Below, in pieces: positions 12,851-61,473 of a DNA stretch of 64,000 bases (position 1 is the stretch's first letter; each line of letters opens with the position of its first letter). The translations under genes were made by a program, and so were the position numbers. Under the pieces are notes generated by a model. That model was not told the DNA's origin, did no database searches, and saw only the letters and a program-made list of their open reading frames with translations. Origin of the DNA: Spironucleus salmonicida. Its lineage: Eukaryota. The stretch is from positions 1,178,001 to 1,242,000 of the forward strand of contig NC_090596.1 in NCBI RefSeq assembly GCF_000497125.1, given 5' to 3'.

Positions 12851-12855
12851 AAACG

Positions 12856-13125: not shown

Positions 13126-13153
13126 TTTGGAGTGGAAAACGCCGGTCCTCACA

Positions 13154-26041: not shown

Positions 26042-26069
26042 TGTGAGGACCGGCGTTTTCCACTCCAAA

Positions 26070-26339: not shown

Positions 26340-26344
26340 CGTTT

Positions 26345-27619: not shown

Positions 27620-27644
27620 TTCGGAGGGGCAGTGAGAAAACAAA

Positions 27645-29084
27645 TCAGTCGAGGGGGTTGGAGGTCCTGATCTCGGGTTCTTCCTTCTGGGCGGCCACTC
27701 TATCGTCCATGCTCACCTCGCGGTCCGTGCGCTTCACGATGAGGGGGCTCACGAGCACCAGCAGGATCGAGGTCACGAAGGACACGTACAGCGAGGCCGA
27801 GTTGCCCACTAAGGCGGACACGCCCGAGATGATCGCGGAGTCCACGGCCTGGGCCACCACGATCGTGCAGTTGAAGATACCCGCGTAGAGACCCTTGGAC
27901 TTCTGGGGCGCCAGCACGCCCACGATGATGAGGTGGATCGAGTTCATGCACGCGTTCAGGAAGCCGATGATGGCCTGGCAGAAGATCTGCACGGCCATGT
28001 GGTTGACAGCTGCGCCGCCCGGGAAGGCGCCCGCGAAGAGGATGCACATCGCGAGGACGTTAGTCCCCGCCGCGAAGAACTGCATGTTGCGCTCGCCGAA
28101 TTTTTTGACGAGGCCTGCGAGGAAGGGGGAGAATATCATGACGACGACGTTCTGGGCGATGGCGCACATGTTGGTGACGTCGACGGAGAAGATCTTGCCG
28201 AGGAACTGCTGGTTGGGCGTGAAGGTGAGCCAGTCCACGAAGAGGACGATCATGGCGAAGTAGAAGATCTTGTTCATGCCGCGGAACTCGATGTAGAGCT
28301 CCTTGAACACGTTGCTGGAGGCCTTCGCCTCGACGAGCTGCGTCTCCTTGACCAGGATGAAGGCGGGGATGAAGGAGACTAGCGTCACCACGCAGGCGAT
28401 CGGGGCCATAATGGGGTATAGCTTGACCCAGGACATCACGTGGGTATTGGGGGGAACACCGGGGGTCGTGTCTATCGGGGAGGTCAGGTAGAGGACGAGC
28501 ATGATCACGTTGGAGATTGTGTTCGAGATGCCGCCCATGAGGGCCTGTCCGGAGGCGCCCTTGCCCTGGGACTCCTTGGGCACGTTGACCGCGATTAGGG
28601 AGTGGAAACTGCCCATCTCCACGTTGACCGCGATATTGAAGAGCACGATGCCCACGATGGCCCAGCCCTGGACGAAGCCGAGGTACTTGGAGCCAGCGGT
28701 GAGGTCCTCGGTGTACATGGTCGCAGCGGCCTTCTGTGCGAAGCCGCACCAGAGCTGAGAGAGGGCGGTGAGCACGCAGCCGATGGTGACGTAGAGCTTC
28801 CGGGCGCCGTACTTGCTCCGGGAGCGATCGGTGAGGTAGCCCACCACGGGTTGGACGAAGAAGCCGAACACGGGCCCGAGCACCTGCACGATGGACGAGG
28901 TGGAGGGGCCCAGGTTCAGCTGCTCGAGGTATGGCTGGTTGATGACACAGTATACGGAGAAGCAGAAGCCCACGCCGCACATGGTGAGGTTGATCATCAG
29001 GATCTTCCAGGTGGGCCAGTCGAGGTTCGGGTCGCGCTCGACCACCTCCTGAGTGACGGTGCCGTCGTAATCTGCATCGGCCAT
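27645..29084 (-). CDS. SUT/SLC45-like MFS transporter, copy 2 of 10111-11550
   Basis: 479 aa, same motifs; about 15 amino-acid differences from copy 1. Confidence 0.88.
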   Translation of the reverse strand: MADADYDGTVTQEVVERDPNLDWPTWKILMINLTMCGVGFCFSVYCVINQPYLEQLNLGPSTSSIVQVLGPVFGFFVQPVVGYLTDRSRSKYGARKLYVTIGCVLTALSQLWCGFAQKAAATMYTEDLTAGSKYLGFVQGWAIVGIVLFNIAVNVEMGSFHSLIAVNVPKESQGKGASGQALMGGISNTISNVIMLVLYLTSPIDTTPGVPPNTHVMSWVKLYPIMAPIACVVTLVSFIPAFILVKETQLVEAKASSNVFKELYIEFRGMNKIFYFAMIVLFVDWLTFTPNQQFLGKIFSVDVTNMCAIAQNVVVMIFSPFLAGLVKKFGERNMQFFAAGTNVLAMCILFAGAFPGGAAVNHMAVQIFCQAIIGFLNACMNSIHLIIVGVLAPQKSKGLYAGIFNCTIVVAQAVDSAIISGVSALVGNSASLYVSFVTSILLVLVSPLIVKRTDREVSMDDRVAAQKEEPEIRTSNPLD

Positions 29085-29292
29085 TTTATAAACTTCGGGT
29101 GTCCGGAACTCTAGTGGATTGGGTATGATATTGATTCTCGCGACGATTCACAAATGTCAGTTATTCCGATCACTCTTGCTGATTTGGTGCCAATATACTA
29201 ATATACCCAAAAGTGTTCCGCATTCTTAAACTGTCCTGTAACACTTAGCCAGCTCCGGCAATTGTCCCGTGGCCGAAAGTGTTCCCGCTCCC

Positions 29293-29646
29293 ATGACCCG
29301 CTACTGGAACCCCGCCGAGGTAGAGACGCTCCGCGGCGCCGTGCTCGCCGAGACCTCCCCGGGCGGCGTGAACTGGGAGGGGGTGGCAGGCGCGGTGGGC
29401 TCCAAGACCGCGAAGCAGTGCTCCGTGCGCTTCCACAACATCGAGAAGTTCGGGGACCGCCCCAACGCCAGGATGCAGTGGTCGCCCCTGCAGGACCACC
29501 TGCTGCTGCACATTGCCATGGCGAACGGGAACGCGTGGGCGGCTGTCGCCGGCCAGCTGGGCGTGGGGGTCAGCGTGGCCAAGAACCGCTACTACGTCCT
29601 GCAGCGCATGGCAAGGCGCGACCAGCCCGTGCTGGTTCTAGAGTGA
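29293..29646 (+). CDS. Two-repeat Myb protein, copy 2 of 9549-9902
   Basis: Inverted copy with a few substitutions. Confidence 0.9.
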   Translation: MTRYWNPAEVETLRGAVLAETSPGGVNWEGVAGAVGSKTAKQCSVRFHNIEKFGDRPNARMQWSPLQDHLLLHIAMANGNAWAAVAGQLGVGVSVAKNRYYVLQRMARRDQPVLVLE

Positions 29647-29655
29647 AGAAGTCGA

Positions 29656-30081
29656 TCACCACAGCCAGCTCAGCTCCTGGAGGGCACCGCTCTGCTCCTC
29701 CCAAAGATCCTCCGGCATGACCGGCAGCTTGCTCAAGACGCCACATTCGCCCCCGCGCCGCAGCACGTAGAAGCGGTTCTTGCACACCGACACCGACAGG
29801 CCGATGCGCTCCGCCACCAGCACCCACTTGCGCCCGGTGGCCGCGGCCTCGCGGATTACCGCGCTGTCCATCTCCGACGTCCAGACTGACTTCGTGTGGG
29901 GCTGGCCGCCGCCCACGCTGAACTTCTCGATGTTGTGGTACCGGACGTAGCACTGGCGGGCGCTCTTGGTGGTCACTACCGCGGCGATCGCCTCCCAGCG
30001 GATGCACCGGCCCGGGGTAGTCCCCCGCACCGCGCCACGCAGGAGGGCGGTCTCGTTCTCGGTCCAGGTCCTGCTCGTCAT
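29656..30081 (-). CDS. Two-repeat Myb protein, copy 2 of 9114-9539
   Basis: Inverted copy, 2 amino-acid differences seen. Confidence 0.9.
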   Translation of the reverse strand: MTSRTWTENETALLRGAVRGTTPGRCIRWEAIAAVVTTKSARQCYVRYHNIEKFSVGGGQPHTKSVWTSEMDSAVIREAAATGRKWVLVAERIGLSVSVCKNRFYVLRRGGECGVLSKLPVMPEDLWEEQSGALQELSWLW

Positions 30082-30199
30082 TCTGTGTGGCGTTAGTTAG
30101 TGGAACGGAAAAGTGACTGCATATCCGTAGTAATATCGGGTTTCCGCGGAAAGTGTTGCGGGAACACTTTCTTGTGAATCGGTAGAATTCTGCAATCTC

Positions 30200-32281
30200 T
30201 CACTGGTAGAATACGGACTCGATCCCGTCCTCGGCGACCCGGCACCCCGCCCCCGCGAACGACAGCACCGCGGGCATGGCCGCCTCCATCGCGAAGGGGA
30301 CCCTGATCTCCCGCCCCACCTGCTGCACTCGCTGCTCCTGGTCGAATCCCTCCGCCGCCCACTCGCTTCGAGCGCGGTCGTGGCGCGGGTATACTCGCCA
30401 CCCGAACCCCACCTGCCGCTGCAGCTGGCGCACGTTCCCGGAGACGAGGACCCGCCCGTGCTGCAGCACGACCACCTCGCTGCAGAGGGAGTTGATTTCC
30501 GATATCTGGTGCGTCGACATGAGCACCGTCCCACTCAGCTGGCGCAGGGCGGCAGATATGATTCTCTGGCTGTTGAGGTCGATGCCGCATGTCGGCTCGT
30601 CCAGTAGGTACAGCGCAGCGTCCTTCAGCAGCGCGATCGCCAGGTTCAGCCGGCGCTGGTACCCCCCGGACAGCTTCTCCACCTGCTTGCCCCGCTCCGT
30701 TAGCTCCAGAAGGCCCAATACCTGCGATACCCTGGCCTGACTCTGGCCCACGATGGAGTTGCAGAGGCTGACATGCTGCTGGACCGTGAGGTTCTGGAAG
30801 GTGATATTTTCCTAAAACATGATGCTGAGCCTTTCGTAGTACTCGTGGTTCTGGGTGGCCTTCTGGCGCCCGCAGCAGGAAATATTCCCGACGGAAGGCG
30901 TTACGGACCCCTGGATGGCCTTGAACAGCGTTGTCTTCCCGGCCCCGTTCTCGGCCACGAGCCCTATTATCTGCCCCTACAACGGGATGTCGAGGCTCAC
31001 GTCGTCGAGTGCCACCTTCTGGTTCCGTTTTATTTTATACGACACTGTTAGGTTATCGATGCGCAGGCTGCTGATAGATGCAGGGTCGGGCGGGTGATTT
31101 CTGATCGAACTCTGGACGGGATTCTCTCCCACGCGCACGGATCGGTCGATATATATCCCCGCAGCGAAATACAGTATCATGGATATGAGCGATATCAGGC
31201 ATATGTAGAGCAGAGATCCGTGCTGCGCGTCGTAGTTACTGAAGAACTCGATGAAGGAGAAGCTCTGCTGCTGGAGGTAGAGGTACGATATTTTGTTGTA
31301 GTAGACAACGGCGGCAGAGGAAGGGAAGAAAAACATGCAAAGGAACTGGGCTATTATTTGGTAATCGGTAGAGAACACTAGCTGGATGACCATGTAGCCA
31401 AACTGGCCTATGACGCCCGTAATTACAAATATGACCAGTATCTGAGACTGTTTAGACCCGATGCTCAGGATGAACATCGAGAACCCCACAGAAAATGCCA
31501 GCGCTGGGAATACCGACATCACAAATGCAAAGAAGGATACTGCGGGCGCAATCTTGACTTACTGTAAAAAGAACACCAGGAATCCCATCATCAGGCTGAC
31601 TAGCAGAGTTTCAGCAGCCGTTATCGAGGCCACACCGATCCAAAAGTTTTGCTTATGCATACCGAGGCAAATTAGATACTCGTATCTCCGCTTCTCCTTC
31701 AGCTTGGCCACATTCACAACTTAGAACAAAGAAAGGATGAAGAAGGAGTACGGGGCAAAGAATAGGAACGAATTGTAAAACTGAACGCTAGAGTATACAA
31801 ATTAATAATTTATTGGTTTATGAAAATTAAGAAAATATTATAACAGATATAGTGATACTGAGTCTACCATATCTTAGTCAGGGATTGGAATTTAATCAAC
31901 TGTATTAATAGATACAACAAAGTTTTGTATAGATATCGAAGCAAGTATGTTATTACTATTCTACGAAATATATAAATTCATATCTTCTAAATTGTTAAAA
32001 TATACAGCTTGAAGATTTAATTAATTTTCTTCATTAAGCGACATCAAAGTATTTTCAATAGCTTCTATTTGCTTTTGTTGAACATTAAATGCTATTTATT
32101 AATTTTTATATTGCTTTAAGATAACTGGCATTTTAAAATTTTTAATTTCTGAATTTATAGGTCTATTATATGAAAATATGGCAGAGATCATTGGTATTGA
32201 TATGCACAAAACTATTGTGAATAAATACATGACCAAACTAGACTTTTTAGAATAAATTTAAAATAATATACCACTCTTCAT
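30200..32281 (-). CDS. ABCA-like half transporter (TMD plus NBD), full length, 693 aa
   Basis: ATG 32281 (MKSGILFQIYSKKSSLVMYLFTIVLCISIPMISAIF) open into the repeat arm; KLKEKRRYEYLICLG..FW ABCA-type motif; Walker A AENGAGKTT, LSGG, LLDEPT. Confidence 0.85.
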
Positions 32282-38664: not shown

Positions 38665-39213
38665 TTGAGGAAAGAATATAATATAAATATTATATAGTTA
38701 TAAATAATTATTTTTTCTAACAGTGAAAAATATATTAAAAAATTATACAAAGCATGACATAGTACTTCTGATTAGTTTTATATAAAATATTTGTCATAGA
38801 GTATATTAGATCATTGAATATGGATCTGTCTTTCTTATTAGTAATTCAATTTAGTTGATGATTTTTGATAACACAAATTGCTAAAAATAGTTGTTATTAC
38901 TAAATATACAAGCAAGCCTGATTTGTTTTAATGAAAAAATTATCATATACTTAGATCTGTTATCTTTCTTAGAGGTTAATTATATGAAAATATTTTTATT
39001 CTATAACAAGTTGAACCTCTTGAAGTTATAATACCATTTGATTAATGCGCGTGGGTGTACATCCACCCTCCCGAGTCTACTGTGATACGTAAATCAAACG
39101 AGTCAAAGCAACTTTCACCATAATATAATTTATATATGCTGTGCATATAATATTTAGTCGAGTGGAATAAGTCCACTATATTATACAGTATACGCACAAA
39201 GTTATCCGGTAAA

Positions 39214-39492
39214 ATGGTGCACAAGTCGCAGCTACTAACCCTGTGCGGGGTCCTGTTCTCGCTGGTCGTTGACGTGCTGGTGCTGGTGATGTTCTCGCTC
39301 CAGTACGATGCCACCAAGTCGCCGTTCAACCTGGCCTTCATCGCGCTCTCGGCGGTGTTCCTGGTGAGCCTCTCGGCGGTGTTCGGGGTCCTCCTCGTGC
39401 GGTACTGGCGCTAGAGCTCTCCCAAGGCGGTGGGCAAGGGGATCCACAGGGGGCTGGTCTCCAGGGAGCAGGAGCAGGTTTACATCGCGTGA
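39214..39492 (+). CDS. Small two-TM membrane protein, 92 aa
   Basis: AAAATG start, two hydrophobic helices, reads through TAG(Gln) to TGA 39490-39492. Confidence 0.7.
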
Positions 39493-39716
39493 GTTATTGT
39501 CTTCAGTGCTGCCGCGTGCCGGAGGGGTGAGGCGGGAACTACTCAGTGCGGGAGCGAATAAGTAGCGCTCCAGCGGCCGCGGCCTGCAGTAAATATATAC
39601 GTTACAGGTGCGCGGCCAAGGGCGGAATCTGGTTATTATACGGCGTTTAGCCCACTCCCCAGAAACCGAACTTTGGGCTTAACTGCGCTATATACTCAGA
39701 TACGCTCAATCTTAAA

Positions 39717-41261
39717 ATGGGACGACTCAAGCTCCACGAGACCTCGGGCGTGCTGGTGGCCGCGGCGACCTCCCCGGCGCAGTTCCTCTACGCGCTCTCG
39801 GCCTCGCACGTGAACAACAACCTGCCCATCCTCTCAAGCTCCCTCGGGATCTCCCTCTCCACCGCCTCCTGGATCATCAACGTCGAGCTCATCGTCGTGG
39901 TCATCACCGCCACCATGACGGGCAAGCTCTGCGACCGCTTCGGCACCTCGCTCGTGATGTCGCTCGGCACCGCGGTCTTCGCGGTCTTCAACCTGCTCTT
40001 CCTCTTCGGCGCGGCCGAGACCTCGCTGCTCGTCGTGCTCATCCTGCGGTTCCTGGCGAGCGCGGGGCTGGGGCTCATGCTGCCCGCGAGCACCCCGCTG
40101 GCCGTGCAGCTGGTGAAGAAGGGCAAGCTGAACGTCGCTATCGCGATCATGTCCATCATGGTGCCCTTCGGCTTCATCCTGAGCAGCCTCGTCGCGGGAT
40201 ACGTGGCCCAGTACGGCAGCTGGCGCTACATGTTCGCCATCGTGGGCGGGCTCTCGCTGCTCTACCTCGGCGGCCAGCTGCTCGTGCTGCCCTACAAGGA
40301 GAGCGCACGGAGGCGGGTCCAGATCGACTTCCTGGGTGTGATCATCCTGTCGGTTGGCCTGACGCTGTTCATCGTCGGGCTGACGTCCTTCGCGCAGCAG
40401 CTGCTGCCCTGGTGGGGGTCAGCGCTCCTGCTGGTCGCCTCGGTAGGGGTGCTGGCATTCTTCGCGTTCTACAACATCAGGCTGTCCCGGGCCAAGGTGT
40501 TCCCGCTCACCGTGTTTAACCGCCCCACGGTGGTCATCGAGGTCATGATCTTCATGATCAACGTCCTGGGCTACAGCGAGCGCTTCCTGATGCCGTACAT
40601 CTTCATGGTGCTGCTGAAGCTCCCTCCCGGCCGCGCCGGCATCCTGATCTCCATCACGGGCTGCTCGACCTTCGCGTTCGCCCCGCTCGCGAGCTTCCTC
40701 TTCGTGCGCGTCACCACGCGCCGCCTGCAGTTCATGCTGCACGCGCTGTACCTGGTGTTCGTCCTCCTCAACATCCTGAACCTGCAGCTGGTGCAATCCG
40801 CCGTGTTCTACACCGTGATCACCTTCGTCACGATCGGGCTCACGACCGCCTCGACGATCATCTCCACCAACTACAACTTCTCCGCGGTGCCGCCCGCATT
40901 CCAGAACACGGTGGGCGTGCTGAACCAGCTCGTCACGAACGCCGGGCACTCGGTGGGCGTCACTCTCGCGGTGCTGGTCAACAACCTCTCGACCGACCCG
41001 GGCCAGGAGCTCACCTTCAACTCCGCCACGATCACGGTAGCCGCCTCCGGGGTCGTCGCGGTGGCGGTGGTGGCCACCTCGCTGCTCCTGAGCCTCTTCC
41101 AGTTCGAGCGCGGCAGGTGGGGCTACTCCGAGCGCCAGTCCGCCCGGACGAAGACCTTCGACGAGAACCTGCTGGGCGACCACGAGGTCCTGGAGGTGGA
41201 GCAGTTCGGCCAGGAGAAGGACTAGGAGCCCGCCTTCACCTACCGCGGGCTGCTGCTGTGA
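39717..41261 (+). CDS. MFS transporter, DHA2/EmrB-QacA (14-TMS) type, 514 aa
   Basis: VNNNLPIL, SWIIN, GKLCDRFG (motif A), LRFLASAG, GSWRYMF, IDFLG; TAG at 41223 is Gln, true stop 41259-41261; tail YRGLLL. Confidence 0.88.
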
Positions 41262-41288
41262 GGTTCTTTTGCGATACATATACCAGTC

Positions 41289-41888
41289 TCACTCAAAGCT
41301 CTCCGCGCTCGCCGACTCCTGCCGCAGCTGGCTCAGGAGCTCCTTCCGCTCGCTCAGCATCTCCAGCTGGTGCGCCATCGCCAGGATCTGCAGGTCGCGG
41401 TGGCCGACCTCGTGCTGCGCGTGCAGGAGGTCCTGGTTCATGGCCGCCTGCACCCGCTGCAGCTCCTCCAGCCGCTGCGCGTAGAACTCGGTCTGGCCGG
41501 CCACCTCCTGCCGCAGCACCGCGTTCTGGGCGTTCAGCAGCGCTATCTGGTGCGCGAGGCTCTGCTGCTGCACCCGGGCGTCCTCGAGGAGCCGCGCCTC
41601 AACGTCCTGCTGCGCCTGCAGGAGCTGCGCCCGGAGGCCCGCCACCGCCGCGTCCCTGTCATGGGCGATGCTCTAGCGGTGCAGCTCGTGCGACTTCGTG
41701 AGCTCGGAGATCCGGTTCCGGAGCTCGCAGTTCTCGTTCCGCGCGGTCTGGAGCTGGAGCGCAGCGGCATCTGTGGCTGCCTGGTGCTGGCGCTCCTGCA
41801 GGTCCTTCTCCAGGTTTTTCCTCAGCAGCCTCTGGTTCTCGGCCCGCAGGCTCGCCAGGATCGACGACTCGATGTGCTCCTCGCTCAT
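41289..41888 (-). CDS. Coiled-coil protein, 199 aa
   Basis: Two track fragments joined by TAG=Gln; Leu/Gln/Glu heptads; ends GAG-TGA. Confidence 0.75.
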
Positions 41889-42280
41889 ATTTTATATTTT
41901 GTAAATTTTATCTCCATATTTTGAACATAATAATTTAGTTTATAATTTACTTCAAAAAAATTTATCATGCGATCATAAGGAATAAAATTTACTTCCACAT
42001 AAAAATTATAATATCAATTATATCAATTAGTACAATTAAATACCATAAATTGTTTAAATGCATTTTACAAAGAAATACACAAAGAAAATTATATTTACTG
42101 ATTTTTTGTACCAATATCAACAGTACTTTTTAACCGCATACCTTAAACCAATCAAACATTATATACCATTATTATCATGTGCCACTGTATTATAATCATT
42201 CATTATTTAAAATCCACTCCACCTTTCATCACCAAATTCATAGTTTCGATTCAAATTCAAATTCCAAGAGCCAAATATTA

Positions 42281-42781
42281 TCACTCCTGAAACCGCATGT
42301 CGCTGAGCTGCCGCGTGAGCTGCTTCACCACCTCCTTCAGACGCGCCACCTCGCCAGACTCCGCCTCGGACGTGCAGATGCGCTGCACGGACTCCGCGTA
42401 CTTGGCCGCCGCGGGCGTGAACATTGCGGAGCTGGAGGGGCGGATTTTCGCCTGCGGCATCGCAGCGTCCGAGAAGGCGGCGAGCTGGGTCTGCAGCCCA
42501 CGGACCTGGTTCGTCAGCCCGAGGAGCGCGAACTGGAGGTTCGTGTAGGCCAGGTTCTGCTGCCGTTGGAGGTCCAGGACCGCGGCACCGACCGCCGTGG
42601 TCTGGGCGAGCTGGCTGCGCAGCGCACCGTTGGCGGCGGTTAGGGCTGCGTTCTGCTCGAGCAGCAGCGCCTTGTCCTGCTGGGATCTAGCGAGGTCGCT
42701 CTTGAGCTGGACGGCCTGCTGCTATGCCAGGAAGTTTTTCTGCAGGTCGGCGCTGGCGGCCTTGTAGGTCTTCTCCGTCAT
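42281..42781 (-). CDS. Coiled-coil protein, 166 aa
   Basis: MTEKTYKAASADLQKNFLAQQQAVQLKSDL...; strong GC3 bias; ends GAG-TGA. Confidence 0.72.
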
Positions 42782-42823
42782 TACCTGGAGCGGGAAACGC
42801 CGGCGGGACATAATAACGACACC

Positions 42824-43648
42824 TCACAAAAAGAGCTTTCCCCACTCGGTGACGTCCTCCAGCGCGCAGTGGAACCGCTGGGGCACCCGGGCGTGGAAGG
42901 CGCAGCGGGTGCCCGCCATTGCGGGGATGGCGAAGCCCCTCTGCTGGCAGAAGTACGGATAGACCTCCTCCACCTGCATTGTGGGCAGGATCTGCTGCTC
43001 CAGCTTCCGCCCCTTCGCGAAGATGATCTTCTGGGCACCGATGAAACTGACCAGTTCCGCCAGCGCAGCCCCCTGCGAGACGTAGGCGATGCTCTTGTGC
43101 TTCTGGCACGGAATGCCGGTGATTACCTTGGAGATGTACCTGGCCGAGGCGTTGGCGGTGTCGGGCGGCGGCGCAACGAAGCGACGGAATGTCTCCATCG
43201 ACGCGCCCGACACCCGCACCGCCCCTATCTCGCTGATGTAGAACGCCGCCTTCGTCTGGTAGTACAGCTCGAAGTCGACGATGACGGTGACTTCCTGCCT
43301 TGGGACTTTCTTGAAGTGCTCCAGGCTCAGCACCGGGATACCGAAGGGGTTCCGGTTCCGGCAGATGCTGGTCTCCCGGTCCAGCGCAGCGGGGAAGTCG
43401 CTCTGCGCCGGGAGCGCCGGGAACGGCTGCTCGTGGATCGGCTTAAGCTGGCCGAACGTTATCCTCTCGTACGTGAAGAGGGCCTCGGCGACGGCGGTCT
43501 TTCGAAAAAGGAAGGACGGGAGGATTTGGTGAGGGACGTTCGCCAGCACCCCCGTCAGCCTGCCTCTGGCCTAGATGTCCAGCGTGCCTATCTCGAACAG
43601 CTGGGCTGGCGCGAACACGCCGGTTGCGAAGAACACCTCCCGGAACAT
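42824..43648 (-). CDS. DEDDh-fold nuclease with Maelstrom-type E-C-H-C zinc motif, 274 aa
   Basis: VIVDFE, YISEIGAV, FRRFVAPP, ITGIP, IFAKGRKLE, RCAFH, FHCALEDV. Confidence 0.8.
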
Positions 43649-43705: not shown

Positions 43706-45112
43706 ATGATAAGCCCGCAGATAATCTACTACACGGACGCACCCCCGCACGCCTCGAAGCTGACGCCGAAGCAGTATCTCCTGCCACCGCTGCCGCCGTC
43801 CTTCCAGAACGTCAAGATGCAGCTCCTGCAGGACGTCCCGCTGGCGATCTCGCAGCTCTCCCCCGTGTCGGCCCAGTTGATCTACGCGACCTAGACCGTC
43901 CTGATCGAGCTGCAGGACCTGATGCCGGTGAAGAACTACCGCCAGCAGACCATCACCTCGCGCCGGAGCCCCCCGGTGTCCTTCTCGCAGCATCAGCAGA
44001 CGTGCGACCTGCTCTTCAACGGGCAGCTGTACCAGACCGTCGCGTTCAAGTTCGACTTCGTGCAGGCCGTGTTCCTCAACCAGACCTTCGTCGTCTTCAG
44101 CCAGTCCGCCTCCACGCTCATCCTGCAGGGCTACCTGGAGCAGGAGCTGTTCACCATGCAGTTCGAGGTCCCCGCGCGGGTGCGAAGCGTGGACTTCGAC
44201 GGGACGTTCTTCGCGGGCACGCTGGCGGACAACGCGGTGTTCACCGGGCAGATCCTGAAAAAGCAGGCCTTCCGGGTGTTCAGCCCGCTGCCGCAGGACG
44301 TCGCGCAGTCACCGATCCTGACCTGCTTCATCTCGCACGTCAACTGGGTTGTCGTCACCGCCTTCGCGGCCGGGCTCGTGGTGTTCTCGGACCTGTACGG
44401 CCAGTTCCTGCAGCTGCTGGACCTCAACGCGCTATTGGCGACCAGCAACACGGTGCTGGCGATCGTCGGGACGCGGCAGAGCACCCAGCTGAACCTGGCC
44501 CTGATCATCGAGAAGTCCCCCATCCTGGCGCTCCGCATCGACCTCTCGCAGCACCGGCTGATCACGCGCCAGTTCCTGTCGCGGACGCCGCAGATGCTCC
44601 TCAGCTACCCGCGGGTCCCGGTGCAGACGCTGCTGGCGCTGCTCTCCTTCGTGCAGCCCTTCGCCCCGATGCCCCAGGACGCCCGTCCCCTCTACGTCGA
44701 GAAGCTTCACCAGGCCTACTTCCCCGCCGAGGTCCTGCGCCTCAGCCCCGTGGCGAGCCTGAACGCGCTCCGGCTCGAGGTGCTGGTGCGTGTGGCCGTG
44801 CTCTGCCGGGAGGGCTCCAGCGAGCTCACGGCCTTCCGCGGCATCCTGGCCAGCCTCTGCGCGCAGGCCGGGAAGTGCCAGTTCGCGCGGGCCCTGGGGC
44901 TCAACGTGCAGTCTGGCGAGGCGGACGCCAACCAGGCGCTCTCGCAGGGCCGGGACCTGCGCGTCCAGGGCCAGCACCTGGGCGGGCGGTTCGACGAGGT
45001 GCTGAGCGGGGAGCGGCCGGACCTGCTGAACCTGGAGGGCGACCTGCTCTTCGCGGACTTCGCCCAGCTGCAGGCCCAGGAGGGCCACAAGGTGTTCGGC
45101 TGGCTGGAGTGA
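43706..45112 (+). CDS. Hypothetical protein, 468 aa; beta-rich N-terminal part, helical C-terminal part
   Basis: ATG 43706, one TAG=Gln, strong GC3 bias, ends GAG-TGA. Confidence 0.75.
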
Positions 45113-46364: not shown

Positions 46365-48107
46365 TCATGACATGTCGTGGGCATGAGGCGTGCCGGTCAT
46401 CCTTTGGACAGGTAGATCAAGCTGGGGAGCTTTTTTCTTATTCCGCATGCTTTTCAGAATTAGCACTACAACCAGGATTGTGATGGCAATCACTGCTAGC
46501 ACACCTACGAAAATACCTGTGATCTATCCTCCGGACATCAGCTGCGTGCACTGCTCCGGGTTGAGCGTGCAGTTGACGCATTCGCCGTTGACCATTTCCG
46601 CGCCCACGGTGCACGCCTCGCACGTTCCCCCGACTCCGCACATTGAGCAGCTCTCGACCAGGAGTGCATCGCATAGGCAGTGCGCGCCCAAGGGAATGGA
46701 TGCGCAGGAGCTGCACTGGCCTTCGCTCAGATAGTTGCCGGGCGTGCACGTCTTGCAGGCGGACCCCGTGCAGCTGGTGCAGCGCTGGATCAGGGTCCCG
46801 GCGCAGTTGCACTGCTCCCCCTCCGTTATCTACTCGCAAGGGCTGCACGCACCGTCCTTCAGGAAACGCCCAGGCTCGCAGGCCTGGCAGTCGGTCGCGT
46901 TTGTGCAGGTGCTGCAGTCTGCAATACAGACGCGGCATACGTGCACGATTAAAGTACTGTCGCAGTATTGACCATCGGCGCACGGGGTGGTCTTCTCGCA
47001 GTTGAAGGGGGCGCACTGCTTGTTCTCCAGGATGTACCCCGGGATGCACTTCCCGCAGCCCTCCAGACCGCATGCGTCGCAGTTCATGTATGGATTGCCG
47101 AGGCAGATGCAGGTCGATCCTACGATGCTATCCGCGCAGTCCTTGCACGAGCCCCCTACCAAAGAGTGCCCGTTGATGCACTACGAGCAGGTATCGCCAT
47201 CGCAGCCGCCGCAGTTCTCAATTTTCTGCGCGCCGCACTGGCAGCTCATCCCAAGCGGCGAGGTTGGCTGGCACGCCTTGCATGACCCTGATGCCAAGTA
47301 ATCTCCAACCTTACATTCTGTGCACGTACGTGAGCCGCCCGAGCACTTTACACAATTAGTATAGCATTCGGTACATACATTACCCTTTGTGGTAAACATT
47401 TCGCAGAACTAATGACTTGTGCAGTCGGTGTCGTTCTTGCATGCGTCCACAAAGCATTATCCGTTGGCTACTTTTCCACTCGGTAGGCAGGTTTGGCAGG
47501 TGCTTTGCTTTGGGTAGCATGCAGTGCAGCCACCTTGCTGTTTGTTCTGGCACTGGCACTTCTGGTCGAACGTCGTCATGCTGCTGCATGCTTGGCAGGT
47601 ATTGGCTTCGGTGATGAAGAAGTCGTTGTTGCACTGCTAGCACTTCAGCTAGATGTCGCACTTGAAGCAGTTTGACGGGCACGGCGTGCAGGTATTGGAT
47701 GCGTTCAGGACGAACCCAGGCGGGCAGGTAATGCAAACTTTTTCTGCCGAGCAGGTGAGGCAGTTGTCAGAGCACTTCTTGCACATATCGTTATCTAAGT
47801 AGTACCCATCCAGGCAGACTTAGCAGGAGGTTTCGCTGGTGCAGGTTTTGCAATTAGCCTGGCAATTAAGGCAGGCGCGGTCCTTGAGAAAGTGGGTATG
47901 GGTGCATTTGACGCACTAGCTGCCTTTACCACCTTCGCAAACTGCACAGTCTTTGCGTATGATGGAGTCACTATGGCACTGGCAGGAGGTTCCGACTGGC
48001 ATGTCTTCGTTGCATTTTTAGCACGTAATTTGGTCCTTGCCTGGATTTAGGGGGCAGTAAAAGTTTTGAACGCACCCGTTCATAGTATCAGAGCAGTTTC
48101 CACCCAT
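46365..48107 (-). CDS. Cysteine-rich membrane protein (CRMP; VSP/HCMP-like), 580 aa
   Basis: Many CxxC motifs, C-terminal TM (GIFVGVLAVIAITILVVVLIL) then basic KSMRNKKK tail; ATG and TGA in frame. Confidence 0.9.
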
Positions 48108-48493
48108 TTTCAAGGGAAAGAAGCGAGTGATATCTAATGTTTAAATCTAGTTATAGTGTGGATTATTTTTAAATTTTAGTCGTATTGCAGTTATACTTAT
48201 TTAGGGGCAATAGCTTTCGATTCTGCGTGGCGAAATATATGCTATATACCTAAAAATATAAGTTAACTTTAGTTTTTCTAACTAATGTATAACCGATATT
48301 ATAGATACAGACTCCATAAATCAAAACGTAGAATTTTATGCTAATATAGGTTCAGCATAAAAATAGTACATTTACTAGGAGGCCGATGTTTCCAATACCG
48401 CGTATTACCCAAACCCGCGCCATCGTTTACTACCGAAACCAAAAACTCTTTCGTATTACCTCCATAGTACTGTATAATAGCGGCAGTACCTGA

Positions 48494-49044
48494 ATGGACG
48501 CAGCCGCCTGGTTCCACGACCCGCGCTACGCAGCACCCCCGATCGGGTCGGAGCTCATAACCCCGGAGCTGGCCGCACACTTCCCCCTGGCTCCCTGCTG
48601 CTCCTCCCCAACAGGGCGGCGCACCGCGACTACCCCGGAGTTCCCCCGGCCCAGTTCGCCCTGCGCCCGGAGCGGCCCAAGATCGGAGTATCGGCCTGCC
48701 TGACGGGCGAACGCTGCCGGTACGACGGGGGGCACGCCGCCCAGGACCTGGAGCGCTACGCCGGCCACGCGCTCGTCCGCTTCTGCCCCGAGCAGCTGGG
48801 CGGGCTCCCCACGCCGCGCGAGCCGGCGGACCTCTGCGGGGAGGAGGTGCTGACCCGGTCCGGGACGAGGGTGACCCTGGAGTTCCGGCGGGGCGCGGAG
48901 GCGGCGCTGCAGGGGCTGCTGGCCGAGAACGTGGTGCTGTGCGTGCTCAAGCGCAAGAGCCCCAGCTGCGGGGTGGAGCGGGGCGGCGTCACGGCGAGGC
49001 TGCTGGAGCGCCACGGCTTCGCGTGCGTGGACAGCGAGCGCTGA
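48494..49044 (+). pseudogene. DUF523/TudS-like gene, frameshifted copy
   Basis: C5 run at 48583-48587 versus C6 in the intact copy; otherwise colinear. May be a sequencing error. Confidence 0.65.
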
Positions 49045-49123
49045 GGGAGTGATACTTGCAATCTGCTTCGGGCCGACCCGCCGCTCCCAAAATATATCCC
49101 GCCGTTTCTTTCCGCCTCGCAAA

Positions 49124-51031
49124 ATGCAGGAAGTGCGCGATTCCCAAGGCGAGGAGTACGCCTCCAAGATCGCCCAGAACCCCTTCTCCCTCACCTCGGA
49201 GTTCGACGTCTACCGCGCGCGGGCGGCGGCGAAGCAGGAGAAGATGACGCAGATCCAGTTCCAGAAGGCGACGCCCATCCAGAACCGCCTCAACTTCGCG
49301 GCCCGCAACGCCATGCTCTCGCTGAGCTCGGACCGGCCCCCGAAGCCGCTCAGCAACGCGATCCTGACGGGCGCCGACCCCGATATCCAGCAGCTGGCGC
49401 GGACGGTGCGGCAGCAGAAGCTGGACCTGCACGCGCCGAGCTTCACGGGCAAGTACGCCCACCTCACCGGCCAGGACAAGCTCTTCCTCGAGGGGCTGGT
49501 GCGTACCAACGGCGCGGGCGACAAGCTGGACAAGTTCCTGGAGAAGCAGAAGGACATCTTCCTGGTGGAGCTGAGCCTGCAGACCAAGCAGCAGGAGATC
49601 GACTCCCTGGACGGGGACGTGAAGCGGCGCGAGATGGGGCTGCAGCAGCGGTCGGACGTGCTGGACAGGGAGATCCAGCAGTTCGACAAGGACGTGCGCC
49701 AGAGCGACCAGCAGACCATCTCGTCCGTGCTGCAGCAGGAGCAGGCCATGCGGGCGAAGACGCAGAAGCAGGAGCAGATCCGCCAGCTGTCCACGCAGCT
49801 GATCCAGATGAAGAGCGAGATCAACAAGCAGGAGCTGGTGCTGCTCCGCTTCTGCAAGTACCGCCAGTTCGTGCAGGAGCTGCTCCCGGCCGCCGAGCGC
49901 AACCAGGTGCAGCGGGACCAGGAGCGCTACGCCGACCAGCGCAAGTGCATCGCCCTGTGCTGCGAGCGCTTCAGCACCTGCGACGGGCTGTGCCTGGAGT
50001 GCTTCGAGTTCACGCCCACCGGCTACGACTTCTCCCCGCAGCTGCAGGCGGACCCGGCGCCCGCCTGCCCGCACGCGAACTTCGTGAACTACGCGAAGAT
50101 CAACGCCCTGGACCAGGAGTTCCTGGCGCAGAGCAACGAGGCCCTCAGCCAGCTGGACGAGAACAGCAAGAAGATCGCCCTCCGGGGCATCGCGGACCCC
50201 GCGGCGTACACGGAGTACTACAACTTCCCCACGAAGGACCCCGGCATCCCGGACTACACGGCGGTGTGCATGAACGGCTTCGTGCGGGAGCCGATGACGG
50301 TGCAGTTCAACAACTCCTTCGAGTTCATGAACACGATGCGGCTGATCGAGGCCAACAACTTCTACCTGGTGGAGAACCTCCAGGAGACCGACAACTCGAT
50401 CGACCACCAGAAGCAGCTCTCGCAGGCGCAGTTCAAGAAGGCGGACCAGGAGGTGACCTCGCTCGCCAGCCAGCTCGAGCGCCTCAACTTCCTCAACCTG
50501 GACACGATCTCGAAGCAGCAGAAGCAGACCGGCATGACCGACGAGCAGTACAACCGGCAGATCGAGGAGATCGCGAAGATCGACAACCTGGTCAAGTCCT
50601 CGTACTCCACCGTCGTGAGCGCCATCTCGGAGTAGCTGCGCAAGGACCCCTCCTGCGAGAAGTTCTCGTCCTACTCCCAGATCGCGGACCTGCAGTCCAT
50701 CGGCTCGCTGTCCATGCTGTCCTGGATGGAGGGGCAGCTCGAGCGGCTGGCCCAGCGCGTCTTCCTCATCAAGGCGCCCGACTTCCGCTTCCGCTTCGAG
50801 CGCCAGATGGAGCGCAACCGCCGGAAGAAGGTCGCCCAGACCAAGTTCGCCGCGAAGGAGGAGGCCCGCAAGCTCAAGATCGCGCGCACGCAGGAGCGCA
50901 GCCAGGAGCCGATCCGGCGCTGCGACGTGCGCGACGTGAAGTTCATGAGCTTCGGGAAGCAGAAGCGCAAGATCGGCGGCGAGCGCAAGGTGGAGGAGGA
51001 GGGCCACGTTGAGGCGGGCTTCTACGAGTGA
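49124..51031 (+). CDS. CFAP100: CFAP100/CCDC37-like (DUF4200) flagellar coiled-coil protein, 635 aa
   Basis: FLEKQKDIFLVELSLQTKQQEI...FDKDVRQSD...KYRQFVQELLP and IEANNFYLVENLQET; TAG at 50633 is Gln. Confidence 0.8.
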
Positions 51032-51076
51032 GCGCGTGTCCGACCGCTATATGGCAGCCGCCCTTCCGCTCCGTAA

Positions 51077-51517
51077 ATGTCGCAGCGGCTCATGAAGGAC
51101 ATCAGGGAGCTCCACGCAGCGGTGGAGGACGGCGAGCTGGACGAGGTCGAGATCACGCAGGACGGCGACCAGTGGGAGCTCGCCATCCCGGGCCAGGGCG
51201 CGTACGCCGCGGGGGTGTTCCGCGTGGGCTTCGCGGCCCAGGGCTTCCCGAGCGAGGCGCCGGTGCTCAACTTCCGCACCAGGATCTACCACCCCCAGGT
51301 CAACGCCGACGGCACCTACTGCTCGAAGCTGCTCAACCCCGCCAACTGGAACAAGTTCACCACCCTGCGCCAGCTCGTGGAGGAGATCATGGACCTCTTC
51401 ACGCAGAGCGACTTCCCCAACCCCAGCAACGCCGAGGTGGGCGCGGCCTTCAAGGCGGACCGGCAGAAGTACCTCGCCACCTGCAAGGAGTGGGTGCAGC
51501 TCTACGCCAAGAAGTGA
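51077..51517 (+). CDS. Ubiquitin-conjugating enzyme E2 (UBE2L3-like), 146 aa
   Basis: RLMKDI, YAAGVF, FPSEAP, FRTRIYHPQVNADGTYC (catalytic Cys), ANW, PSNAE. Confidence 0.92.
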   Translation: MSQRLMKDIRELHAAVEDGELDEVEITQDGDQWELAIPGQGAYAAGVFRVGFAAQGFPSEAPVLNFRTRIYHPQVNADGTYCSKLLNPANWNKFTTLRQLVEEIMDLFTQSDFPNPSNAEVGAAFKADRQKYLATCKEWVQLYAKK

Positions 51518-51801
51518 TGCTAATCGTAATTTGTTATTCGTACTTAACTATGCATTTAATCTGGTTAACTATATACTTGATCACAGAACTTCATACATAT
51601 TACAGTGTATATTAGGAATAATCATTTGGTTCACACGCGTGATGTTGCGCCCGGCCACCCGAGTCTACTGTGATACGTAAATCAAACGAGTCAAAGCAAC
51701 TTTCACCATAATATAATTTATATATGCTGTGCATATAATATTTAGTCGAGTGGAATAAGTCCACTATATTATACAGTATACACACAACGTTATCCTGCAA
51801 A

Positions 51802-52080
51802 ATGGTGCACAAGTCGCAGCTACTAACCCTGTGCGGGGTCCTGTTCTCGCTGGTCGTTGACGTGCTGGTGCTGGTGATGTTCTCGCTCCAGTACGATGCC
51901 ACCAAGTCGCCGTTCAACCTGGCCTTCATCGCGCTCTCGGCGGTGTTCCTGGTGAGCCTCTCGGCGGTGTTCGGGGTCCTCCTCGTGCGGTACTGGCGCT
52001 AGAGCTCTCCCAAGGCGGTGGGCAAGGGGATCCACAGGGGGCTGGTCTCCAGGGAGCAGGAGCAGGTTTACATCGCGTGA
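51802..52080 (+). CDS. Small two-TM protein, copy 2
   Basis: Same as 39214-39492. Confidence 0.7.
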
Positions 52081-52304
52081 GTTATTGTCTTCAGTGCTGC
52101 CGCGTGCCGGAGGGGTGAGGCGGGAACTACTCAGTGCGGGAGCGAATAAGTAGCGCTCCAGCGGCCGCGGCCTGCAGTAAATATATACGTTACAGGTGCG
52201 CGGCCAAGGGCGGAATCTGGTTATTATACGGCGTTTAGCCCACTCCCCAGAAACCGAACTTTGGGCTTAACTGCGCTATATACTCAGATACGCTCAATCT
52301 TAAA

Positions 52305-53849
52305 ATGGGACGACTCAAGCTCCACGAGACCTCGGGCGTGCTGGTGGCCGCGGCGACCTCCCCGGCGCAGTTCCTCTACGCGCTCTCGGCCTCGCACGTG
52401 AACAACAACCTGCCCATCCTCTCCAACTCCCTCGGGATCTCCCTCTCCACCGCCTCCTGGATCATCAACGTCGAGCTCATCGTCGTGGTCATCACCGCCA
52501 CCATGACGGGCAAGCTCTGCGACCGCTTCGGCACCTCGCTCGTGATGTCGCTCGGCACCGCGGTCTTCGCGGTCTTCAACCTGCTCTTCCTCTTCGGCGC
52601 GGCCGAGACCTCGCTGCTCGTCGTGCTCATCCTGCGGTTCCTGGCGAGCGCGGGGCTGGGGCTCATGCTGCCCGCGAGCACCCCGCTGGCCGTGCAGCTG
52701 GTGAAGAAGGGCAAGCTGAACGTCGCTATCGCGATCATGTCCATCATGGTGCCCTTCGGCTTCATCCTGAGCAGCCTCATCGCGGGATACGTGGCCCAGT
52801 ACGGCAGCTGGCGCTACATGTTCGCCATCGTGGGCGGGCTCTCGCTGCTCTACCTCGGCGGCCAGCTGCTCGTGCTGCCCTACAAGGAGAGCGCACGGAG
52901 GCGGGTCCAGATCGACTTCCTGGGTGTGATCATCCTGTCGGTTGGCCTGACGCTGTTCATCGTCGGGCTGACGTCCTTCGCGCAGCAGCTGCTGCCCTGG
53001 TGGGGGTCAGCGCTCCTGCTGGTCGCCTCGGTCGGGGTGCTGGCCTTCTTCGCGTTCTACAACATCAGGCTGTCCCGGGCCAAGGTGTTCCCGCTCGCCG
53101 TGTTCAACCGCTCCACGGTGGTCATCGAGGTCATGATCTTCATGATCAACGTCCTGGGCTACAGCGAGCGCTTCCTGATGCCGTACATCTTCATGGTGCT
53201 GCTGAAGCTCCCTCCCGGCCGCGCCGGCATCCTGATCTCCATCACGGGCTGCTCAACCTTCGCGTTCGCCCCGCTCGCGAGCTTCCTCTTCGTGCGCGTC
53301 ACCACGCGCCGCCTGCAGTTCATGCTGCACGCGCTGTACCTGGTGTTCGTCCTCCTCAACATCCTGAACCTGCAGCTGGTGCAATCCGCCGTGTTCTACA
53401 CCGTGATCACCTTCGTCACGATCGGGCTCACGACCGCCTCGACGATCATCTCCACCAACTACAACTTCTCCGCGGTGCCGCCCGCATTCCAGAACACGGT
53501 GGGCGTGCTGAACCAGCTCGTCACGAACGCCGGGCACTCGGTGGGCGTCACTCTCGCGGTGCTGGTCAACAACCTCTCGACCGACCCGGGCCAGGAGCTC
53601 ACCTTCAACTCCGCCACGATCACGGTAGCCGCCTCCGGGGTCGTCGCGGTGGCGGTGGTGGCCACCTCGCTGCTCCTGAGCCTCTTCCAGTTCGAGCGCG
53701 GCAGGTGGGGCTACTCCGAGCGCCAGTCCGCCCGGACGAAGACCTTCGACGAGAACCTGCTGGGCGACCACGAGGTCCTGGAGGTGGAGCAGTTCGGCCA
53801 GGAGAAGGACTAGGAGCCCGCCTTCACCTACCGCGGGCTGCTGCTGTGA
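52305..53849 (+). CDS. DHA2-type MFS transporter, copy 2
   Basis: About 4 substitutions versus 39717-41261. Confidence 0.88.
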
Positions 53850-53876
53850 GGTTCTTTTGCGATACATATACCAGTC

Positions 53877-54476
53877 TCACTCAAAGCTCTCCGCGCTCGC
53901 CGACTCCTGCCGCAGCTGGCTCAGGAGCTCCTTCCGCTCGCTCAGCATCTCCAGCTGGTGCGCCATCGCCAGGATCTGCAGGTCGCGGTGGCCGACCTCG
54001 TGCTGCGCGTGCAGGAGGTCCTGGTTCATGGCCGCCTGCACCCGCTGCAGCTCCTCCAGCCGCTGCGCGTAGAACTCGGTCTGGCCGGCCACCTCCTGCC
54101 GCAGCACCGCGTTCTGGGCGTTCAGCAGCGCTATCTGGTGCGCGAGGCTCTGCTGCTGCACCCGGGCGTCCTCGAGGAGCCGCGCCTCAACGTCCTGCTG
54201 CGCCTGCAGGAGCTGCGCCCGGAGGCCCGCCACCGCCGCGTCCCTGTCATGGGCGATGCTCTAGCGGTGCAGCTCGTGCGACTTCGTGAGCTCAGAGATC
54301 CGGTTCCGGAGCTCGCAGTTCTCGTTCCGCGCGGTCTGGAGCTGGAGCGCAGCGGCCTCTGTGGCTGCCTGGTGCTGGCGCTCCTGCAGGTCCTTCTCCA
54401 GGTTTTGCCTCAGCAGCCTCTGGTTCTCGGCCCGCAGGCTCGCCAGGATCGACGACTCGATGTGCTCCTTGCTCAT
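53877..54476 (-). CDS. Coiled-coil protein, copy 2
   Basis: Near-identical to 41289-41888. Confidence 0.75.
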
Positions 54477-54603
54477 ATTTTATATTTTATAAATAAATAA
54501 ATAATAATATAATAATAATATAGTTAATACGAGTAATATCATATATAATATAGTATAATATTTGCTTTTATTTCAAAATCCTACTTTCCATTCCCACTTC
54601 ACA

Positions 54604-58650: not shown

Positions 58651-59000
58651 GTGCTATACATTGAATTGATTTTATTAATATAATATTGAACATAAGTAAC
58701 TAAATTCGTTAGTGCGGGGGAAAATCATAATAATACTATATAACAATTATATTTATTGTAAAATTAGAAACTGGATTTTTAAACGGGTTTTGATTTATCT
58801 ATATATTATAATAGACTCAGTAAAGTATCTTTATCTTAGAGATGTTCGAACATTAAATGACCAGTGTAGTAGATCTCAACAAGCAACATCATCTTATGCT
58901 ACATTTTGGTTGAACTAGTGATAAGCCTTCACATATGTTCTAAAAATAATGATATGATAATAAATACTTAACGGATATCAATAACAAATTAAGCTTAGCA

Positions 59001-59441
59001 TCACTTCTTGGCGTAGAGCTGCACCCACTCCTTGCAGGTGGCGAGGTACTTCTGCCGGTCCGCCTTGAAGGCCGCGCCCACCTCGGCGTTGCTGGGGTTG
59101 GGGAAGTCGCTCTGCGTGAAGAGGTCCATGATCTCCTCCACGAGCTGGCGCAGGGTGGTGAACTTGTTCCAGTTGGCGGGGTTGAGCAGCTTCGAGCAGT
59201 AGGTGCCGTCGGCGTTGACCTGGGGGTGGTAGATCCTGGTGCGGAAGTTGAGCACCGGCGCCTCGCTCGGGAAGCCCTGGGCCGCGAAGCCCACGCGGAA
59301 CACCCCCGCGGCGTACGCGCCCTGGCCCGGGATGGCGAGCTCCCACTGGTCGCCGTCCTGCGTGATCTCGACCTCGTCCAGCTCGCCGTCCTCCACCGCT
59401 GCGTGGAGCTCCCTGATGTCCTTCATGAGCCGCTGCGACAT
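59001..59441 (-). CDS. E2 ubiquitin-conjugating enzyme, copy 2
   Basis: Same protein as 51077-51517. Confidence 0.92.
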   Translation of the reverse strand: MSQRLMKDIRELHAAVEDGELDEVEITQDGDQWELAIPGQGAYAAGVFRVGFAAQGFPSEAPVLNFRTRIYHPQVNADGTYCSKLLNPANWNKFTTLRQLVEEIMDLFTQSDFPNPSNAEVGAAFKADRQKYLATCKEWVQLYAKK

Positions 59442-59486
59442 TTACGGAGCGGAAGGGCGGCTGCCATATAGCGGTCGGACACGCGC

Positions 59487-61394: not shown

Positions 61395-61473
61395 TTTGCG
61401 AGGCGGAAAGAAACGGCGGGATATATTTTGGGAGCGGCGGGTCGGCCCGAAGCAGATTGCAAGTATCACTCCC

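Follow-up and report, generated by a model that had tools for sequence, protein, structure and literature searches.

A Predicted DEDDh Exonuclease with a Putative Maelstrom-Type Zinc Site in a Diplomonad

The stretch of 64,000 nucleotides analysed here (contig NC_090596.1, positions 1,178,001 to 1,242,000; hereafter the window) carries on its minus strand, at 42824..43648, a small and intron-free gene. The protein that it encodes (P0001) is very probably a DEDDh 3′→5′ exonuclease with a complete catalytic set, its activity being predicted. We lean towards placing it in the branch that unites Maelstrom (MAEL) and the exonuclease of the arenavirus nucleoprotein (NP), with a putative structural zinc held by E140, C249, H252 and C261; membership of the Maelstrom clade is likely, not proven. 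By analogy, the enzyme is most likely an exoribonuclease dependent on Mg2+/Mn2+, and RNA is the presumed substrate because the precedents (EhMael of Entamoeba histolytica, the trypanosomatid protein TbRIF4 and Lassa virus NP) act on RNA.

Results

The features of the gene are listed below. P0004 and P0005 are relatives described further on, and 2p1j is the Protein Data Bank (PDB) entry of a PolC-type exonuclease from Thermotoga.

42824..43648, minus strand: open reading frame (ORF) of the nuclease gene, ATG to TGA, 274 amino acids plus stop under NCBI table 6
43334..43648, minus strand: N-terminal stretch of about 105 residues without a recognisable domain (no match in a Pfam scan at E ≤ 10)
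42827..43297, minus strand: DEDDh (DnaQ-like) exonuclease domain, residues ~118–274, supported by profile searches, Foldseek, VIA-align and sub-threshold Pfam matches
43268..43276, minus strand: ExoI, D125-F-E127, aligned to DFE of 2p1j; Asp in 4 of 4 alignment rows, Glu in 3 of 4
43229..43231, minus strand: E140 in YISEIG, strand beta2, at the position of the Glu zinc ligand of MAEL; 4 of 4 rows
42998..43000, minus strand: E217 in AKGRKLE, acidic residue of ExoII, opposite the Asp of NANFD in 2p1j
42893..42904, minus strand: C249-A-F-H252, CxxH of the putative zinc site; both P0004 and the P0005 repeat retain it
42854..42871, minus strand: H260-C261-A-L-E-D265, the H-x4-D motif of ExoIII, in which the last putative zinc Cys adjoins the catalytic His

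Every motif named in the earlier note on this DNA is present in the gene: the DEDDh catalytic residues with ExoI, the Glu of YISEIG, KG..LE, C-x2-H and HCALED. The catalytic set reads D-E-E-D-h, ExoII carrying a Glu in place of the usual Asp, and E217 stands opposite the ExoII Asp of 2p1j in both profile alignments. The active nidovirus ExoN has its ExoII residue given as “D/E” in a legend of PMC7968707. All five catalytic positions are also kept in P0004. The composite pattern C..H.{5,12}HC...D arose in none of 200,000 shuffles of the protein, whose composition includes 5 Cys and 6 His. The N-terminal ~105 residues align weakly to the N-terminus of P0004, and no Pfam match to an HMG (high-mobility-group) box was obtained in P0001 at E ≤ 10.

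At the level of sequence, the ECHC tetrad is present as E140, C249, H252 and C261. Among the signature residues of MAEL, zinc is bound by ECHC alone, as described by Chen et al. (PMC4408791). The local spacing of these and of the ExoI and ExoIII positions is identical to that in silkworm (Bombyx) Maelstrom (Mael; residues from PMC4408791), as follows.

ExoI pair: D122 and N124 in silkworm Mael; D125 and E127 in P0001; spacing +2
Glu of beta2: E137 in silkworm Mael; E140 in P0001; +15 from the first Asp
CxxH: C290 and H293 in silkworm Mael; C249 and H252 in P0001; spacing +3
Last Cys: C302 in silkworm Mael; C261 in P0001; +9 from the His
ExoIII position: R306 in silkworm Mael; D265 in P0001; +4 from the Cys

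The distance from the Glu to the first Cys is 109 residues in P0001 versus 153 in Bombyx Mael, the middle of the domain being ~44 residues shorter in the former. Given an ungapped last helix, the end points of the VIA-align superposition (model residue 195 on Bombyx residue 315, chain 9nhc_F) would put C261 on C302 and D265 on R306.

An exhaustive phmmer search over 1.84 billion representative sequences returned six proteins at E ≤ 0.001, of which three (P0003, P0004 and P0005) are real relatives. P0004 is the hypothetical protein SS50377_22638 of S. salmonicida (302 amino acids, 29–31% identity to P0001) and is the only named ortholog. P0003 is a fragment of 141 amino acids, 40–41% identical to P0001, that stops before ExoIII. 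P0005 (phmmer E 9e-6) is a tandem array of 1521 amino acids, with 8 hmmsearch matches to the A1 profile. A repeat protein (P0002) and a protein of zinc-finger repeats (P0006) were dropped as spurious bias matches after inspection of their sequences and hmmsearch alignments. Word-index searches recovered P0001 and P0004 alone and no further relatives; scans of viral contigs (A1, P0005) and of metagenomes (A1) confirmed no relative.

Conservation was read from an alignment of four rows, with P0005 entered as one repeat of 166 amino acids (A2, A4); an alignment with the entire P0005 produced a chimeric row and was rejected in favour of the single repeat. Only five Cys and His residues of P0001 are kept in P0004, namely C249, H252, H260, C261 and H111. 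Both P0004 and P0003 retain E217. In the P0005 repeat, D125, E140, C249, H252 and C261 are retained, while E127 is replaced by Ser, E217 by Lys, H260 by Tyr and D265 by Ser. No Cys other than C249 and C261, and no non-catalytic His other than H252, is common to P0001, P0004 and the P0005 repeat. Since this trio survives in a repeat whose catalytic residues are lost, the Cys/His set has a role separate from catalysis. Animal Maelstrom has followed the same course, having lost the catalytic DEDD and retained the ECHC zinc tetrad (PMC4408791); the P0005 repeat resembles it in that the C/H/C residues are retained and the catalytic ones are gone. P0005 as a whole is an array of Maelstrom-like domains; the repeat examined has neither a Pfam Maelstrom match nor a PDB sequence match.

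Maelstrom (PF13017) is the top Pfam family for P0001, with E 0.0052 and 16.9 bits over the full length; when the domain is searched by itself, the values are E 0.0019 and 18.3 bits. RNase_T (PF00929) matches residues 122–213 with E 0.054 and 14.5 bits over the full length and E 0.012 and 16.6 bits for the domain (cut-off 24), and Arena_ncap_C (PF17290) has no match in P0001 at E ≤ 10. Among solved structures, profile searches of the PDB found 2p1j at E 9.5e-4 with A1 and 4.1e-5 with A2 (residues ~119–224); this match spans ExoI to ExoII (profile positions 7–108 of 164) and leaves out the CxxH...HC region. Neither P0001 alone nor P0005 alone matched any PDB sequence at E ≤ 10.

The ESM Atlas is a single source, which we took for leads only. 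By feature similarity it gave 0.94 and 0.90 for two unnamed and mostly arthropod clusters, 0.89 for Maelstrom, 0.85 for DEDDh_C, 0.84 for arenavirus nucleoprotein and 0.81 for RNase_T. Its own model reached a template-modelling (TM) score of 0.77 over 163 residues with the Maelstrom cluster, versus 0.64–0.68 over 140–146 residues with the nine other clusters listed, which are of RNase_T type or related. The ranking in the viral structure library (BFVD) was headed by unnamed proteins, a pair of ichnovirus ORFs and a protein of a Drosophila-associated adintovirus, which fits the arthropod and viral Atlas clusters. Taken together, the Atlas clusters (mostly arthropod, some viral) and the BFVD matches to ichnovirus and adintovirus proteins give a hint of a MAEL-like family, as yet unnamed, in arthropods and in DNA viruses of arthropods.

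Residues 80–274 were modelled with AlphaFold2 (AF2) from the alignment of four rows, with a mean predicted local distance difference test (pLDDT) score of 59.9 and a predicted TM score (pTM) of 0.63. The sheet and main helices have pLDDT 70–89, and residues 80–109 lie below 50. As modelled, the fold class is certainly DEDDh, with the RNase H-like core beta1-beta2-beta3-alphaA-beta4-alphaB-beta5-alphaC, and DEDDh domains align to the model at VIA-align Z 9.4–11.0 over 126–169 residues. Foldseek against the PDB returned five matches at E ≤ 0.001, all of them DnaQ/PolC (8h18, 8h2f, 2p1j, 9qpc and 9qrn; best E 1e-4). On re-ranking with VIA-align, 235 of 998 chains reached Z ≥ 8, with 8h18, 2gui and 8zef at the top (Z 11.0, 135–140 aligned residues; root-mean-square deviation, rmsd, 3.1 for 8h18 and 2gui). 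Lassa virus NP chains (3mwt, 3mx5 and 4g9z) scored Z 10.0 with 138–140 residues aligned over chain residues 383–542, and Maelstrom chains scored Z 9.7–9.9 with the longest alignments (164–169 residues, from model residue 18 or 20 to 195). These VIA-align scores are close to ties, and the AF2 model cannot tell to which DEDDh branch the protein belongs. The two models differ on this point: the AF2 model scores somewhat higher with DnaQ than with Maelstrom (Z 11.0 versus 9.7–9.9), and the Atlas model has a higher TM score with Maelstrom than with the other clusters.

The reading frame depends on the genetic code. There is one in-frame TAG in the nuclease ORF, at codon 26, read as Gln (Q26) in the table 6 translation; under table 11, the ORF is reduced to one of 241 amino acids starting at GTG. 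Table 6 is right for the window because its Pfam-verified genes (ABC transporter, protein kinase, superfamily 1 (SF1) helicase and PP2C) contain 18–76 in-frame TAA/TAG codons. TAA and TAG encode Gln in all Hexamitinae known to the 2024 survey of PMC11437800. The use of code 6, a hexamitine trait, together with the named ortholog in S. salmonicida, bears out the earlier view of the host as a diplomonad and narrows it to a hexamitine. The ORF has a GC content of 0.63 and a third-position GC content (GC3) of 0.88. The possibility that it is not a real gene was rejected on account of this GC3, the conserved ortholog and the complete domain.

Four runs of a single study, guessed to be of RNA, yielded contigs that match the window at a level of at least 99% from 42179 or 42281 to 44594–44706. 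They span the entire nuclease ORF with zero differences inside it, and contig cover is missing at about 41552–42103 and 44864–45231. They establish that the sequence exists in those runs and are not evidence of transcription.

Genomic Context

The nuclease gene is present in one copy within the window (tblastn) and sits in unique sequence between repeats. Its neighbours and the larger features of the window are the following.

42281..42811, minus strand: Gln/Ala/Leu-rich ORF of 176 amino acids, coiled-coil-looking, no Pfam match; starts 12 nt after the nuclease stop
43706..45112, plus strand: divergent ORF of 468 amino acids; its start lies 57 nt upstream of the ATG of the nuclease gene
7390..13263 and 25932..31805: inverted duplication, 5.9-kb arms, 98.7% identity, ~12.6 kb apart
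46519..51538 and 58980..64000: inverted duplication, 5.0-kb arms, 99.7% identity, ~7.4 kb apart
39067..41906 and 51655..54494: direct duplication, 2.84 kb, 99.3% identity, 12,588 bp start to start
46365..48317, minus strand, and 62202..63998, plus strand: two copies of a CxxC-rich repeat protein of 600–650 amino acids, no Pfam match

Gene spacing around the nuclease is very tight. The duplications carry entire genes, including a major facilitator superfamily (MFS) transporter and Cys-rich membrane proteins. Both copies of the CxxC-rich protein carry a membrane anchor at the C-terminus as well as a short basic tail, and they resemble the cysteine-rich membrane or variant surface proteins of diplomonads. 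The contigs of two of the four runs (X3 and X4) match the window from 42281 upward, and below this point their sequence diverges for at least 255 letters. The point of divergence lies a few hundred bases past the end of the direct duplication at 41906, and the sequenced material may contain a further junction, allele or copy.

Base composition in the window has two states, with blocks of GC 0.57–0.71 alternating with blocks of GC 0.18–0.35. GC-rich genes (the nuclease and the MFS transporter) contain 0–1 in-frame TAA/TAG codons, and AT-rich ones contain dozens (50 in the ABC transporter, 76 in the kinase ORF).

Discussion

We propose the following mechanism for the predicted enzyme. D125, E127, E217 and D265 would hold two metal ions, and H260 would serve as the general base. 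E140 on beta2, C249 and H252 in the loop and C261 before the last helix would bind the structural zinc, which would tie the loop to the sheet as it does in silkworm Maelstrom and in Lassa virus NP. The cellular job is probably the trimming or degradation of RNA 3′ ends, single- or double-stranded. It would be independent of Argonaute, because the only named ortholog belongs to a species reported to be without Dicer, without Argonaute and without RNA-dependent RNA polymerase (RdRP).

Several results weigh against an assignment to the Maelstrom branch. The Pfam Maelstrom score lies below the gathering cut-off of 22 bits, and the match covers only 29 residues (245–273, profile positions 163–191 of 215), which is the CxxH...HCxxxD stretch. 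None of P0004, P0003 and the P0005 repeat has a Pfam Maelstrom match, and P0004 has no Pfam match at all. By sequence, ordinary DnaQ/PolC domains (2p1j, and 8h18 at E 0.94) come nearest among solved structures, and searches of PDB sequences with P0001, A1, A2 or P0005 brought up no MAEL or arenavirus chain at E ≤ 10. The six-residue signature EHHCHC of PMC2628886 cannot be complete in P0001, because the stretch from E140 to C249, where two His are needed, has just one, the unconserved H184. Within the tetrad, the Glu of the EIG strand occurs also in 2p1j, an ordinary DnaQ domain, so that E140 is not diagnostic and only the C/H/C part is. The zinc loop, including C249 and H252, is among the least confident parts of the AF2 model (pLDDT < 50 for model residues 154–169 and 174–180). 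By fold, DnaQ-type chains rank first and Lassa virus NP and Maelstrom come about one Z unit behind, a tie at best, and in Foldseek the Maelstrom chains take ranks 20–23 (E 5e-3, TMq 0.36–0.47). Finally, with three relatives the family is tiny as far as sequence searches reach.

Much of this could be explained if P0001 were a DEDDh exonuclease of the ordinary DnaQ/PolC/RNase T-like kind, with DNA or RNA as its substrate, and if its Cys and His near ExoIII were specific to its lineage and formed no MAEL-type zinc site. Such an origin would agree with the DnaQ-type identity of the best solved-structure matches, whether from the profile search (2p1j), VIA-align (8h18, 2gui and 8zef) or the head of the Foldseek ranking (8h18 and 2p1j). 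HCALED fits the generic ExoIII motif H-x-A-x-x-D, with the Cys at a variable position, and the Pfam Maelstrom match is sub-threshold in P0001 and missing in P0004. We nevertheless regard this origin as rather unlikely: C249, H252 and C261 persist in the P0005 repeat where catalytic residues were lost, their spacing is identical to that of Bombyx Mael, Maelstrom stands above RNase_T in Pfam E-value and in both ESM Atlas rankings, and cellular DnaQ-like exonucleases are described in PMC7968707 as lacking zinc fingers. The opposite departure, a catalytically dead MAEL-like module that binds RNA and keeps its nuclease residues by descent, seems very unlikely to us. The Glu at ExoII and the clearly inactive type of the relative P0005 would suit it, and metazoan MAEL domains bind single-stranded RNA (ssRNA) without exonuclease activity (PMC4408791). 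However, the five catalytic positions of P0001 are filled by competent residues and kept in P0004 despite 29–31% identity, a Glu at ExoII is given for the active nidovirus ExoN (PMC7968707), and the protist MAELs with a full set, EhMael and TbRIF4, are reported as active. Our preferred reading is a catalytically competent enzyme of the Maelstrom/arenavirus-NP branch. The earlier note had proposed an ancestral-type MAEL RNase and had taken best matches to ordinary DnaQ/ERI1/KapD nucleases, together with Cys/His residues that form no zinc site, as a sign to the contrary. The DEDDh fold, the catalytic set and the E/C/H/C pattern uphold its proposal in part, while that sign was half borne out, DnaQ/PolC domains coming first by sequence and by fold among solved structures.

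The protein could also serve RNA interference (RNAi) in the manner of TbRIF4, in which case it would remove the passenger strand of small-RNA duplexes on behalf of an Argonaute overlooked by published surveys of hexamitines. Such stripping is the work of TbRIF4, a DEDDh protein of MAEL type that occurs only in trypanosomatids with RNAi (PMC3359990); surface proteins of Giardia are regulated via RNAi components, as stated in PMC3916229; and the window contains long inverted duplications. Against such a role, S. salmonicida, the species with the ortholog, yielded no Dicer, Argonaute or RdRP according to the main text of PMC3916229. Neither Dicer nor Argonaute turned up in newly sequenced diplomonads according to that of a 2024 survey (PMC11437800), the genome paper on Hexamita inflata contains 0 occurrences of either name, and we saw no link between the nuclease gene and the duplications. 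This absence of an RNAi core rests on published reports for relatives, in their main texts. We consider a role of the TbRIF4 kind hardly probable at all, and the small-RNA or double-stranded RNA (dsRNA) route that the earlier note had inferred finds no support. Its suggestion that the duplications could supply dsRNA held in so far as long inverted duplications exist; nothing ties them to the nuclease gene.

For the preferred reading, that of an Argonaute-independent exoribonuclease of Maelstrom type, a wider conjecture can be framed, to which we would give only a small chance: hexamitines, although reported to have lost the RNAi core, keep an active Maelstrom-type exoribonuclease, and the ancestral job of the MAEL/arenavirus-NP group was the destruction or trimming of RNA without Argonaute. 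If true, the enzyme might, for example, clear dsRNA whose source is convergent or antisense transcription, an inverted duplication or an RNA virus, and the recruitment of such nucleases into the piRNA (PIWI-interacting RNA) pathway of animals and the siRNA (small interfering RNA) pathway of trypanosomes would be secondary.

Among the papers listed in searches of the Creative Commons-licensed PubMed Central (PMC) and bioRxiv literature, none describes such a Maelstrom/MAEL protein for Giardia, Spironucleus, diplomonads, Metamonada or Trichomonas. In the two founding MAEL papers (PMC2628886, PMC4408791), the listing is confined to Entamoeba and trypanosomatids; Giardia occurs 0 times in each, and “diplomonad” 0 times in PMC2628886. 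The combination of catalytic and zinc residues is already known from amoebae, trypanosomes and Lassa virus and is unreported for diplomonads; on moderate evidence, the protein is an incremental extension of a known family. Its interest lies in what protist MAELs of this kind stand for. Those with both catalytic and zinc residues are viewed as the ancestral state of Maelstrom, the piRNA factor of animals, and as the likely cellular source of the arenavirus exonuclease that serves immune evasion. They are documented so far in Amoebozoa and kinetoplastids, and a metamonad member would widen this distribution towards the eukaryote root. The ortholog in a species reported without the RNAi core would be a natural test of whether a MAEL-type nuclease needs Argonaute. 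The gene lends itself readily to expression, and S. salmonicida has genetic tools.

Comparison with Known Systems

PolC and DnaQ epsilon-like proofreading domains (2P1J, 8H18 and 2GUI) share with P0001 the ExoI motif, the Glu of beta2 and the layout of ExoII and ExoIII. Unlike what we propose for P0001, their substrate is DNA and they lack a zinc site (PMC7968707).

Animal MAEL (Bombyx 5AF0 and 9NHC, Drosophila 4YBG; PF13017) is like P0001 in local spacing, in being its best Pfam family and in the Atlas TM score of 0.77. It differs in its N-terminal HMG box, in having lost DEDD and exonuclease activity, and in its place in the piRNA pathway. In architecture, as predicted from its sequence, P0001 is not an ortholog of animal Maelstrom, since it has no HMG box and has its catalytic residues.

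TbRIF4 (Tb927.10.8880) is a 3′→5′ exonuclease that prefers dsRNA and makes siRNA duplexes single-stranded, and its authors credit the recognition of its DEDDh domain to the Maelstrom survey of Zhang et al. (PMC3359990). Like P0001, it has a C-terminal DEDDh domain with H-x4-D at ExoIII (H472 and D477), and its activity is DEDDh-dependent (PMC3359990). Unlike P0001, it is 490 amino acids long, carries an Asp at ExoII (D392), has Argonaute 1 as its partner and is found in RNAi-positive trypanosomatids only (PMC3359990), whereas the ortholog group of P0001 includes a species reported, in the main text of PMC3916229, to be without Argonaute and Dicer.

In the arenavirus NP exonuclease, an active DEDDh enzyme that degrades RNA 3′→5′, the ExoII residue is an Asp. 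The Lassa virus NP structures (3MWT, 4G9Z and 4FVU) align with residues 40–195 of the AF2 model at Z 9.4–10.0 and rmsd 3.4–3.8 over 138–140 residues. The earlier note had stated that this nuclease has an E/C/H/C zinc site; the literature agrees, and DEDDh and ECHC stand together in one domain there (PMC4408791; PMC7968707), as they do in P0001. The viral enzyme differs in being fused to an RNA-binding nucleoprotein, in its dsRNA specificity by means of a basic arm and in its part in immune evasion (PMC7968707).

That some protist MAELs keep DEDD, as the earlier note had also stated, is likewise in print (PMC2628886), and EhMael (EHI_192630) is the closest case in point, an active Mg2+/Mn2+-dependent exoribonuclease (PMC4408791). 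P0001 differs from EhMael in its Glu at ExoII, and did not retrieve it in the exhaustive phmmer search (E ≤ 0.001); the two are likened by description. EhMael combines DEDD and ECHC in one protist protein with no requirement for an HMG box; P0001 shows the same pattern, for which EhMael is its best functional analogue.

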